This document shows positions 3,001 to 6,000 of a stretch of 8,852 nucleotides of DNA, in pieces (positions within the stretch are counted from its first letter, which is position 1; each line of letters opens with the position of its first letter). The position numbers are program-made. The DNA is taken from positions 1 to 8,852 of IMG/VR virus record IMGVR_UViG_2778261136_000008; one strand, written 5' to 3'. This DNA is from a virus (Duplodnaviria > Heunggongvirae > Uroviricota > Caudoviricetes).

Positions 3001-6000
3001 TTGCGCATTGATGCCGAGATACGCTTCCAGTCTTCGCGGTCGTTGTCGATAACTTCATTTTTTGCCCAGCGATGGATGCTGCCGTCAATGTTTCCGGCAT
3101 CCACATCACCAGGCCAGAGAGCGTAGGCCAGTTCGTCATCCAGTGTTTTCCATGTCTGCTTGTATTCGCGATGAATGGCAGCAATGACCGGGCTGATTTT
3201 TCCTGTTGAATTTTCAGTGTGTTGTTGATTGGTTCTGGCGCGGGCGAGATCAACAACAGACGTGTATTTTCCGGTTTCCTTGCGTTCACCTTCGCGACGT
3301 TTTTTCCAGATGCGCATCTCTGCCTGAATTTCGGGCCATTTGGCACCAGGCTTACATTTATGCTTAACCCACCCGATGGCATGCAGCTTAAGTTCCGGAT
3401 ACATGGCGTTAACTTCTGGCATTTTCATCAACGCTTCAACGATATGTCCGTCGAATGTTGCCATGTCTTCCTGCAACAATTCCTGTGCGCTAATAACCAT
3501 ATCAACGGTGATGTTTTCACATGTGTCGAACTTAACCATGACAGCGTTCTGTACTTCAGGGGCCAGCTTGTCAAAAGTGACGTTCATCGGATCTGATTCA
3601 GTCTCAACCGGGACAAAGGAAGCAGACTCCTCATCCCAGCGGTTTTCCTGCATATATTCAGCATCCCAGGAATCGAGGGCAGGGCGGGGTATGCCGGGTT
3701 TATCCTCACAGACAATAAATTTATAAGCGCAGTCCTGAGCTGCAGGGAATTGCTCCAGAAATTGCCAATGAAATTTTGCGCGTGCGCGACGCTCATCACC
3801 GGCTTCAATGGCAGTGGCCACCGCAACAGCGCTATCTTCTTTTATGGCCTGTTCATCAGGAATAGCAGCGCAAATAAAGACCTTACTCATTTTGTTTTAA
3901 CCTCATTACAGATTTCAGGGTGAACGAATCCCTGCCATTGCTGGCATTTTTAATCCGTTGGTATGGTGTTAATATGGCTGGCTGGTTATCCAGCCGGTAT
4001 TTCGTTATTCAGGTTCAGCGATACTTTTTTTAACGGGAGGCATTCACCGGGGATTTTTTGTTCGTCCCTTACCTGAATGCAGGATGACTTACTGTCATAA
4101 ATTCCGGTAATCACATTTTGTGGCTCACCCGTTATAAGAAAAACGGTCATCACCAGTGCAAATGCTGAAGTCACTGCTGTTCTCCGATAATACCAAGTTC
4201 AAGAAGGGCAATTCTGGAAAGTATGGAATTATCATTGAGAAGATAAGGTTCATATTTTCTCATCTTAATGGCATCTTCCGTAAACTCCCGGTTACTGAGC
4301 AGAACGCCAATATCAAAACAACCTTCAGACGTATTAACGTTTGGTAATAACGTTTCCATTATCGCGTCCTCAACAATGAATTTTGTGATGCGGTGCCTGG
4401 TGCCTCCAGGTGACGTTAACCAGTTAACAATTAACGCCGGAATACAGAAGGATGCCCGTTACGCCCCGTAAAAGACCACTTTACGGTTTTAACTGTTCCG
4501 CGTGCGCATAGCCGCATTCACCGCATCACAAAATTCACTTTAAAAAGGGTGGCAGAGCAGTCACGGAGTAGAACTGATGCCACCAAATACTACACATGGG
4601 TATTGTGGCGGGGCTGTCACTTAAGCGTATGGTCAACCTGACGACCCGGTGCATTTTCTGGAGCAATGGAGGAAGCCCCAGCCATACTTACCGCCGCGCC
4701 ATTTCGCGGATTGCCACAACCGGAAGCGCATGATCGAATTACATTTAACGACGACCTGTACAGAGAGACTAACTTCGCCGTGCGCTTTCGTGTTATGCCC
4801 TGACTTTTCAGGGAAATATCCTTTCAGCAAACTGTCAGTGCCGGATTCTTATCCGTGTCCGGCGCACGACCACACGTGACAGCGTGTTGGTCTCCATCAT
4901 TAACCCGGAACCTCTATGGAGGATAATATGCAAGTTGATATTATTAGCCCTGTAATGATCCATATGCTTGCGCACATCAGGCTCTTCTGGCACTAATCAA
5001 CGCCGGAAAAATTGAAAATTCCGCGATGTGCTTTGAAGAGTTGAAACAACTTGTGCGCTTGTATGAATATATTAAAAAACAATCACAAGATACGGCGTAA
5101 TATTTAAAATACTTTCTGTTATATGGGGCTGCTATAATGCTGGCCCATATTTCTAACCCCTCTATAAGAAAAACATATTATTATGGCAATTTCTTCGGTA
5201 GCTCTTCAGAAAGCTGAGTTGTTTTAATTATGGTTTTTAAATAATCATCGCTTTCACATTTGAGTGATTCTATGGCAATCCAGATGTGGGCTTCGGTGCC
5301 TGCATTTGGTTCCAGTTGCTGTAGACGTTTTGCATCTTCCAGTAGTAAGGCGATAACGTGTTTCAGCTTCTCATCATTCGCTTGATTCTTGTTTTCAGGC
5401 GAATTTTGTCCGCCGAATGGCCACTTTTCTTCGTACAGCCCGATAAAGGTTCGACGCACGTTACCGGATATATTGTCGATGGTTTCTTTTTCTACGGTAC
5501 TCAGGTCAAGAGTCGCCAGTTGAGAACGAACTATATTCGCTGCCATTTCCTGGAATGGTACTGGTAAATCTTTAAATTCCATCGTCAACCTCATCAGTCA
5601 GTGTTTCTGGCTAACCAGCGACGCGCGCCAGCTTCAGTTTTAAACGTTTTGCTTCTGGTATACGTCATCGCGGTAAACGTGCCGTCCAGGTTGGAGAATA
5701 CTCCGCATACCAGAGATTCGTTGTTGCCAAGATTGAGCGTATCCATGTTGACCTCATTTACCCTTAACGCCGGGTCGCGGAACTAAAAACCTGCTGCGCT
5801 GTTATACAAAGTGTTCCCGCCGTCATGTTCATACGCCTCGGGCTGGCTACTTAACCCCTGACCACTGCCGGGTAACTCGAAGTATTGCCCTGCGTTCTGT
5901 TGAATGGGGTGGGTTGGTGAAACAAGGATGCACTTTTAAAGTTATTATGTCAACACTTATAAAGTTAGGTTGTGGGCAACAAAAACCGCCTCGAGATGAG

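Follow-up and report, generated by a model that had tools for sequence, protein, structure and literature searches.

A DUF1391 gene and a two-module chimera at the head of a PL-type operon in a lambdoid prophage

What is encoded by the two small open reading frames (ORFs) that lie between the terminator of a toxin-antitoxin (TA) operon and the dicF-dicB module of the viral DNA record IMGVR_UViG_2778261136_000008 (Caudoviricetes), and are the two products partners in a common function? An earlier note on this DNA, whose 8,852 nucleotides (nt) are referred to below as the window, had described the two ORFs, of 50 and 137 amino acids (aa), as an uncharacterized, translationally coupled pair at the head of an early-left-type operon. 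Both ORFs were found where the note had placed them, after the TA terminator and before dicF-dicB, and both are on the minus strand. The analysis shows that both are real protein-coding genes: the first belongs to the DUF1391 family, the second is a fusion of two modules, and the operon that they head carries an operator motif shared with the region between the repressor and cro genes. The two genes and the short spacer between them are as follows.

5594-5746, minus strand: DUF1391 (YdfA/YdaF-family) gene, 50 aa (MDTLNLGNNESLVCGVFSNLDGTFTAMTYTRSKTFKTEAGARRWLARNTD), stop codon TGA at 5594-5596; the first cistron after the PL-type promoter
5583-5593, minus strand: intercistronic spacer of 11 nt (TGAGGTTGACG), in which the Shine-Dalgarno (SD) sequence GAGG (5592-5589) directly abuts the DUF1391 stop codon
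5181-5582, minus strand: gene for a 133-aa acidic helical protein of the MEFKDLP family (PHROG 1363), stop codon TAA at 5181-5183

The 50-aa protein matches the Pfam model DUF1391 (PF07151) with 97.8 bits against a cut-off of 27.3 (E = 2.6e-28), its residues 2-48 covering positions 1-47 of the 48 in the model, and it matches phrog_751 at 4.2e-33. Escherichia coli K-12 has two DUF1391 copies, ydfA in the Qin prophage and ydaF in the Rac prophage, whose products are equal in length to the window protein and 82% and 78% identical to it, respectively. The exact 50-aa sequence is present on at least 1000 public contigs, where it is named DUF1391, and among 5426 complete E. coli genomes, 3786 contain DNA similar to the 801-nt segment used as a query (a maximum of 7 copies in one genome), while 125 of the 5426 contain the complete segment as it stands in the window. 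The ORF is a real coding gene under purifying selection, with a ratio of nonsynonymous to synonymous differences (pN/pS) of 0.19-0.36 in comparisons with eight homologs, for which pS reached 0.63. It has its own SD sequence, GAGG at 5755-5752, located 5 nt before the ATG, and an in-frame TAG lies 13 codons upstream of this ATG, with no ATG, GTG or TTG in between. Upstream extensions of the gene have been called in some genomes (77-102 aa); since these are frameshifted relative to each other, we regard the extensions as artefacts.

The description of this ORF as uncharacterized thus no longer applies to its family, while it does apply to its function. Our literature searches on YdfA, YdaF, YdaG, YdfB and YdfC returned only statements that they are uncharacterized: the ORFs downstream of PL933P have no assigned function in the paper on prophage CP-933P (PMC8630535), and the same holds for ydfABC in the papers on Qin (PMC5069750, PMC10448788). 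A plasmid gene that bears the name ydfA (PMC12111858) belongs to a plasmid operon with ibfA and ydeA, and is set apart from the Qin/Rac ydfA by context only.

We aligned ten DUF1391 sequences, including homologs from E. coli, Salmonella, Cronobacter, Pantoea, phage Bas97 and Salicola. The alignment has 18 invariant columns, all of which are present in the window protein, and the motif GNNE...GV..N.DGTFTA(M/L)T..(K)S(K).FKT..GA..W is kept in E. coli prophages and in phages of Pantoea, Serratia and Salicola alike. The basic C-terminal segment, to which the earlier note had drawn attention, is not part of this conserved pattern, R42/R43 being replaced by QR, QK, LK, VK or KN in distant homologs. 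Besides prophages, the family has members in virulent phages of Pantoea (Lietduovirus), in Serratia phage OS31, E. coli phage HeidiAbel_Bas97 and Salicola phage CGphi29; those of the Pantoea Lietduovirus, Bas97 and Salicola CGphi29 loci (L030 2986-3144, L031 2992-3150 and L032 3001-3174) are 50-60% identical. In Bas97 the gene is in a replication operon, between the genes for a helicase and a Holliday-junction resolvase, and in none of these phages is the gene accompanied by dicF, by a leader of the kind described below or by a PL-type head. Because homologs sit in virulent-phage and other contexts without these elements, the DUF1391 family is broader than the Qin/Rac-type prophages, and the promoter-proximal place beside the immunity repressor, which holds for these prophages, is not universal across the wider family.

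The AlphaFold2 model of the 50-aa protein, which is near neutral (isoelectric point (pI) 7.9) and soluble, displays four beta strands and one helix with a predicted local distance difference test (pLDDT) score of 87. Structure prediction followed by a Foldseek comparison gave a confident fold with no significant structural neighbor: against viral models (BFVD) there was no match below E 0.03, with phage HNH/AP2 proteins among the matches. The core strands and the C-terminal helix superpose on the AP2/ERF (integrase-type) DNA-binding domains, which have three strands and a helix, at 1.2-2.0 Å over 36-37 residues, with scores below significance, and the Arg/Trp residues by which AP2/ERF domains contact DNA are absent from the DUF1391 sheet. 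We rejected an AP2 homology, for which hhalign gave a probability of 0.5% over 13 aligned columns (with an AP2 alignment of four plant sequences), as well as a relation to the double-stranded RNA-binding domain (dsRBD), for which the superposition is poorer than for AP2, the first dsRBD helix is missing and the sequence match has E 1.7.

A third resemblance concerns the head decoration proteins gpD of lambda and SHP of phage 21, with which DUF1391 has a local match of 19 residues (DGTFTAMTYTKSKTFKTEA vs EGTETALTYYKSGTFATEA, E 0.011). DUF1391 is less than half as long as these proteins and is encoded in the early region rather than in a head-gene cluster; the similarity being local only and both length and location wrong, we discarded a decoration function. 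In several records (ON470580.1, ON470583.1, ON470595.1, PV340562.1 and others) the DUF1391 gene is labeled “head-DNA stabilization protein D”; this is a misannotation, which likely stems from the 19-residue SHP/gpD similarity.

Where the second gene starts bears on how the two are connected. On the minus strand the junction reads ...AACACTGAC TGA TG AGGTTGACG ATG GAA..., so that the TGATG overlap proposed earlier does exist (5596-5592), and the 137-aa ORF as first listed (5181-5594) uses the ATG at 5594 within it. However, no SD sequence is found upstream of this ATG (CCAGAAACACTGAC), whereas an in-frame ATG four codons downstream, at 5582, has GAGG (5592-5589) 6 nt upstream. The start annotated by RefSeq (PGAP) in a relative 98.8% identical to the window is the equivalent of 5582, which yields 133 aa and an 11-nt gap; phrog_1363 aligns from residue 5 of the 137-aa ORF (residues 5-127, 5.8e-42); and all homologs start with MEFKDLP. 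The exact 133-aa sequence is present on 101 public contigs, in a collection that does not contain the exact 137-aa form. ATG 5582, located 12 nt downstream of 5594, is most likely the start of the second gene, which would then encode 133 aa.

With the DUF1391 stop codon abutting the following SD sequence, there is little room between the genes, and their translation is probably linked, although most likely not through the TGATG overlap. The junction ACTGACTGATGAGGYTGACGATGGAATTTAAAGATTTACC (ACTGACTGATGAGGYTGACGATGGAATTT) is kept in eight loci. Of the coupling that the earlier note had proposed, what remains is the tight packing, the conserved junction and acceptable SD sequences, provided that the second is assigned to ATG 5582; the start at TGATG is probably not the one used, and the two genes are not fixed partners.

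Two cassettes that other phages carry as separate units are joined in frame in the 133-aa protein. The two modules are the following.

5418-5582, minus strand: N-module, residues 1-55, a helical hairpin (pLDDT ~80), matched by the separate PHROGs 6937, 2151 and 9419
5184-5378, minus strand: C-module, residues 69-133, with the core ELKHVIALLLEDAKRLQQLEPNAGTEAHIW, in PHROGs 30817, 12693, 32391 and 2982

In an exhaustive search of 1.8 billion representatives, the N-module (residues 1-50/60 covered) was found at the N terminus of proteins of 60-208 aa with unrelated, varied C-terminal tails, and residues 69-113, in the C-module, matched residues 2-44 of dozens of free-standing proteins of 46-144 aa. 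The fusion is acidic (pI 5.0), and its AlphaFold2 model is all-helical with a pLDDT of 63, the first 55 residues being predicted with moderate confidence (helices 8-23 and 32-52 at pLDDT ~80), the linker disordered and the remainder lower. Each module travels on its own. In Cronobacter phage phiES15 the C-module directly follows the repressor, and in Shigella phage 75/02 Stx it immediately precedes Kil; genes of the N-module family are located directly after DUF1391 in several prophages and in phage mEp460_ev081, after YdfC in PPompW prophages, phage Evi and an E. albertii locus, and inside the exo/bet/gam gene block in Stx2a phages. One genome, identical to the window (100%) throughout the immunity region, has after DUF1391 a gene for 122 aa with a different tail.

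No function could be assigned to this protein by similarity. Pfam, NCBIfam and PADLOC scans of the 133-aa protein gave no match, Pfam scans of longer relatives of both modules revealed no domains, and neither large homology searches nor the exhaustive one returned a named homolog. A profile search of the PDB with the family gave non-significant matches only, the best being vaccinia A49 with E 0.28. The protein is also unrelated to YdfB, YdfC and YdaG.

A survey of the gene neighborhoods of homologs shows that the neighbors vary. The next gene after DUF1391 is YdfB in Qin-type heads and an unrelated one in the Pantoea, Bas97 and Salicola phages, while in Rac no gene follows on that strand; genes of the MEFKDLP family are also found without DUF1391. 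More generally, the slot between the repressor and PL on one side and kil or dicB on the other is filled by interchangeable small cassettes (YdaG, YdfB, YdfC, the N-module, the C-module). As both genes are distributed independently of each other and the modules of the second are swapped, the pair represents one combination from a pool of exchangeable cassettes.

We next consider how the pair would be expressed. The control region has the following elements.

5925-5975, minus strand: PL-type promoter/operator region, with TTGACA at 5953-5948, a 17-nt spacer and CATCCT at 5930-5925, or else an extended -10 element, TGaCATAAT, at 5952-5944
5931-5943 and 5954-5965: two operator-like palindromes that overlap the promoter
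5756-5925, minus strand: conserved non-coding leader of ~170 nt that separates the promoter from the start of DUF1391

The palindromes are copies of the motif CACTTWWAAAGT, which is confined to this promoter region and to the repressor/cro intergenic region (6996-7008; region 6977-7008), with 5 matches against 0.2 expected. The predicted PL-type promoter, marked by this common operator motif, aligns with the strong Rac promoter TTGACA-N17-TATAGT. In CP-933P, PL933P has been cloned and is repressed ~100-fold by PaaR2 and YdaS, and PaaR2, YdaS and YdaT fill the roles of CI, Cro and CII (PMC8630535); in Qin, a polycistronic dicBF transcript under repression by DicA begins upstream of ydfA (PMC10448788). 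The same gene order at the head of the operon is found in Qin, phage mEp460_ev081, Evi, Tritos and PPompW. The placement of the pair at the head of a PL-type operon that runs into dicF-dicB is borne out by this gene order and by the operator motif shared with the repressor/cro side. Following the CP-933P and Qin precedents, two genes under such a repressed promoter would be silent in the lysogen and would yield the first proteins upon derepression, which argues against an exclusion or defence role expressed by the lysogen; the lack of any PADLOC match for either protein points the same way for defence.

Between this promoter and DUF1391, the leader is conserved at the level of primary sequence. 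It is near-identical in the window, in an E. coli relative with a different repressor (L001) and in the racR-ydaG intergenic region of K-12 Rac, 85-88% identical in unannotated DNA of ~11 temperate phages of E. coli, with 77% identity in Actinobacillus phage vB_Apl-pPE4 (PP818812.1). The last ~37 nt, which make up the translation initiation region, are universal, while the remainder is a mosaic module; Qin-type heads retain only these 37 nt. A pattern for its 19-nt core was found on at least 120 viral contigs, in 95 distinct versions. Near the predicted PL transcription start, the leader begins with a C-rich, G-poor stretch (ACCAACCCACCCCAUUC). We rejected a structured RNA, as the single-sequence fold is no better than that of shuffled sequences (z +1.49); furthermore, the leader has no Rfam match even at E ≤10, no conserved reading frame and no convincing covariation, RNAalifold on the 95 distinct versions giving almost only one-sided changes. 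Phage vB_Apl-pPE4 (PP818812.1, 1-5139), although recorded from Actinobacillus pleuropneumoniae, has an E. coli-like early region with a DicA-like repressor, YdaT, Kil and exonuclease VIII, which suggests either exchange across a wide host range or a mislabeled host.

Read from the repressor leftward, the organization of the window is that of K-12 Qin: dicA, ydfA ydfB ydfC dicF dicB ydfD. Like the window gene, YdfA in Qin and YdaF in Rac are promoter-proximal cistrons of a repressor-controlled leftward operon that carries dicF/dicB or kilR, and they have the same translation initiation region. In contrast, the immunity module is of the PaaR2/PaaA2/ParE type in the window as opposed to DicA in Qin and RacR in Rac, the downstream neighbor is the MEFKDLP-family chimera instead of the YdfB/YdfC of Qin, and in Rac, unlike in the window, YdaG precedes YdaF. 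The architecture is also shared with CP-933P of E. coli O157:H7 (Jurenas et al. mBio 2021, PMC8630535), which comprises a CI-like PaaR2, PaaA2-ParE2, a PL with operators related to those of PR/PRM, small ORFs and dicB/kil. The operator consensus of CP-933P, GTTTAGTAA, differs from that of the window, CACTTWWAAAGT, so that the same architecture goes with an immunity of different specificity. In CP-933P, the activity of the promoter and its repression were measured, whereas the promoter of the window is predicted from sequence.

The early-left accessory genes of lambda (N, Ral, SieB, Kil, CIII and Gam) are small, non-essential and immediately derepressed from PL. The window pair resembles them in genomic slot, expression logic and cassette-like replacement, but has no sequence similarity or confident structural similarity to any of them. 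Moreover, lambda N has an arginine-rich motif and a nut site, neither of which was detected in the window gene and leader by the tests that we ran.

Based on these comparisons, we favor a model in which the two ORFs would be the first two cistrons of a repressor-controlled PL-type transcript in a lambdoid prophage of the CP-933P/Qin/Rac type, the operon being the equivalent of the K-12 dicBF operon (ydfA-ydfB-ydfC-dicF-dicB-ydfD). Release of a PaaR2-like repressor from the two promoter-overlapping operators at ~5925-5975 would let transcription cross the 170-nt leader, the 50-aa DUF1391 protein would be translated first, and ribosomes, finding its stop codon next to the following SD sequence, would pass with little delay to the 133-aa protein (ATG 5582). 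DUF1391 would fold as a compact, near-neutral, soluble beta4-alpha domain, and the 133-aa protein as an acidic, all-helical chimera with a disordered linker. Both would be non-essential, non-toxic early accessory proteins, independent of each other, which bind host or competing-phage proteins during lytic development and serve host take-over or counter-defence, rather than regulators of the operon or defences of the lysogen. We put the probability of this reading at about one half.

Several points weigh against it. The accessory or counter-defence role is argued only from where the genes lie, from their cassette-like mosaicism and from the analogy with Ral, Kil and Gam of lambda. Neither protein received a function from Pfam, NCBIfam or PADLOC, DUF1391 being the only family matched; PADLOC returned no family for either protein at E ≤1, and none of the PHROG families matched by the two has an assigned function. 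In addition, DUF1391 is far more conserved than typical arms-race proteins, which might rather reflect a conserved housekeeping role in the development of the phage. The result on non-toxicity (PMC5069750) was obtained with Qin YdfA at the level of a chromosomal Plac, that is, with another allele and no 133-aa protein, and the choice of 5582 over 5594 as the start of the second gene was itself made from the sequence.

The rival that survives best, although we judge it unlikely, holds that DUF1391 is a nucleic-acid-binding early regulator in the lambda N slot, which would bind the leader, the dicF-precursor RNA or DNA and act on read-through of the DicF terminator or on processing by RNase III/RNase E, the 133-aa protein being a passenger. 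DUF1391 is indeed the first gene after PL, where lambda has N, the window encodes no N homolog, and the conserved 170-nt leader lies just upstream; furthermore, dicB expression needs read-through past dicF, and DicF needs processing by RNase III/E (PMC10448788). Yet the protein does not look like such a factor: all structural scores, including those for AP2 and the dsRBD given above, are below significance, the basic residues of the helix vary, the pI is 7.9, and there is no match to a Pfam N family. On the nucleic-acid side, the leader lacks an Rfam element and convincing covariation, and no boxA-like sequence (YGCTCTTWA, one mismatch allowed) was found in 5100-6100. Leader and gene are also separable, since 54 of 126 leader-bearing viral contigs have no DUF1391 or YdaG motif in the ~190 nt scanned after the leader and Qin heads keep only its last 37 nt, while DUF1391 itself is present in the virulent Pantoea phages, Bas97 and the Salicola phage, where dicF, leader and PL are missing. 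Given the lack of a conserved arginine-rich motif, the folded domain (pLDDT 87), the absence of boxA and of a supported RNA structure, and the members in unrelated operons, an N-like antiterminator is unlikely, and the antiterminator-like factor among the functions proposed in the earlier note is a weak candidate, with R42/R43 not conserved.

We consider it decidedly unlikely that the two proteins form an obligate two-component unit, either a complex or an effector with its partner, which would explain the tight coupling. The 11-nt junction and the adjacency are kept in at least eight loci, including phage mEp460_ev081, and the DUF1391 stop is embedded in the SD sequence of the next gene, as might be expected of such a unit; tight packing is, however, general in phage operons. 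What comes after DUF1391 varies, from YdfB in Qin to unrelated genes in the Pantoea, Bas97 and Salicola phages and no further gene on that strand in Rac, the MEFKDLP genes occur after YdfC and, in Stx2a phages, in the exo/bet/gam block, and the second gene is itself a mosaic whose tails are swapped after about residue 55.

Less likely still is a broader role in which DUF1391 would be an immediate-early factor that replaces N in N-less lambdoid phages, acting on the transcription or RNA-processing machinery or on the nascent early-left RNA, possibly via the leader. If this were true, DUF1391 would control the share of transcription that continues beyond the DicF terminator to reach dicB/kil, the exonuclease gene, xis and int.

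A further reading, in which one or both proteins are host-killing or growth-arrest factors (Kil-like or toxins) in the manner of DicB and DicF, is hardly credible. The operon is known for toxic products (DicB, DicF and YdfD), and small proteins under tight repression would suit this role. However, an induced Qin operon without dicF and dicB, which retained ydfA, ydfB, ydfC and ydfD, gave wild-type growth, viability and morphology (PMC5069750), which makes a toxin role unlikely. In agreement with this, a screen for filamentation picked up the Qin region solely on account of dicB and dicF (PMC6206680), and neither protein has similarity to any toxin family in Pfam, NCBIfam or PADLOC. Equally implausible is that the ORFs are mere translated spacers with functionless products, which shield the long and otherwise largely untranslated dicF-containing transcript from Rho, as might be suggested by the resemblance of the leader's C-rich, G-poor start to a Rho-loading site and by the long untranslated region (4599-5180) after the 133-aa gene, because purifying selection acts on the protein sequence (pN/pS 0.19-0.36), distant phages share 18 invariant columns, the predicted fold is a confident one and members of the family are encoded in unrelated operons.

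The window as a whole contains the left arm and the immunity region of a lambdoid prophage, with all left-arm genes on the minus strand. Its other features are the following.

1-1119, minus strand: integrase
1088-1366, minus strand: excisionase
1419-3890, minus strand: 823-aa exonuclease in the position of RecE
3986-4174, minus strand: DUF1482/YdfD-like gene
4171-4359, minus strand: cell-division inhibitor DicB (Pfam PF05358, 3.7e-38), downstream in the same operon as the pair
4547-4598, minus strand: DicF small RNA (Rfam RF00039, 62 bits against a gathering score of 48, E 4.7e-12), downstream in the same operon
5978-6004, minus strand: intrinsic terminator of the PaaR2/PaaA2/ParE-type transcript, with a 7-bp G+C-rich stem and a 5-nt loop, then UUUUUGUU
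6018-6305, minus strand: ParE toxin (Pfam ParE_toxin, 8e-16), stop codon at 6018-6020
6309-6560, minus strand: PaaA2-type antitoxin (Pfam PaaA2, 2.7e-19)
6527-6934, minus strand: helix-turn-helix repressor
plus strand: YdaS/Cro-like gene, YdaT-like gene and DUF1376 replication gene

The block at 6018-6934 is, according to the Pfam matches, a three-gene module of the PaaR2/PaaA2/ParE2 type. Its terminator (CCGUCUC-AUCUC-GAGGCGG followed by UUUUUGUU, 6004-5978) was missed by a simple terminator scan and confirmed by folding of the region (-15.3 kcal/mol, z -2.5). The relative that is 98.8% identical across 5100-5900 has another repressor and lacks the TA pair, so the immunity region with its TA genes can be exchanged as a cassette. 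RefSeq annotates the antitoxin as 62 aa, from an internal MNTALSP start, and not as the 83-aa ORF that overlaps the repressor gene. A TAAAAT hexamer, and no SD sequence, lies ~7 nt upstream of the first ATG of the repressor ORF (6934; region 6925-6950, minus strand), an arrangement compatible with a leaderless repressor mRNA of the kind shown for paaR2 and lambda cI (PMC8630535); the repressor start in RefSeq is an ATG 9 nt downstream.

On the other side of the pair, the ~580 nt between the 133-aa gene and DicF (4599-5180) contain no convincing gene and correspond to the “long untranslated region containing dicF” of Qin. We noted there an imperfect hairpin at ~5118-5150, directly after the stop codon of the 133-aa gene, a 52-aa ORF without a family match (4835-4993, minus strand) and the equivalent of a short plus-strand ORF that RefSeq annotates in a relative (~4674-4802). 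Further downstream, the C terminus of the 823-aa exonuclease has an Rv2179c-like 3'-5' exoribonuclease (DEDD) domain (3.5e-66, residues 642-813). At E ≤0.01, the only other Pfam match is a weak RNase_T over the same residues, and the first ~640 residues have no match.

Both genes were already catalogued, the first as DUF1391 and the second as a RefSeq “hypothetical protein” in PHROG 1363, and the operon type has been published for Qin and CP-933P, so that the locus is an ordinary one for a lambdoid prophage. What is added here is a corrected start for the second gene together with its fusion architecture, the fold of DUF1391 and its members in virulent phages, and the arguments against N-like and toxin readings. 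Taken together, these results indicate that DUF1391 is a real, folded protein, not tied to its neighbor, for which an N-like role and toxicity are both unlikely. DUF1391 is among the commonest uncharacterized prophage genes of E. coli, and it is the first protein made on derepression of Qin/Rac/CP-933P-type prophages, upstream of the well-studied DicF and DicB; its role, once known, would complete the picture of the dicBF-type operon.

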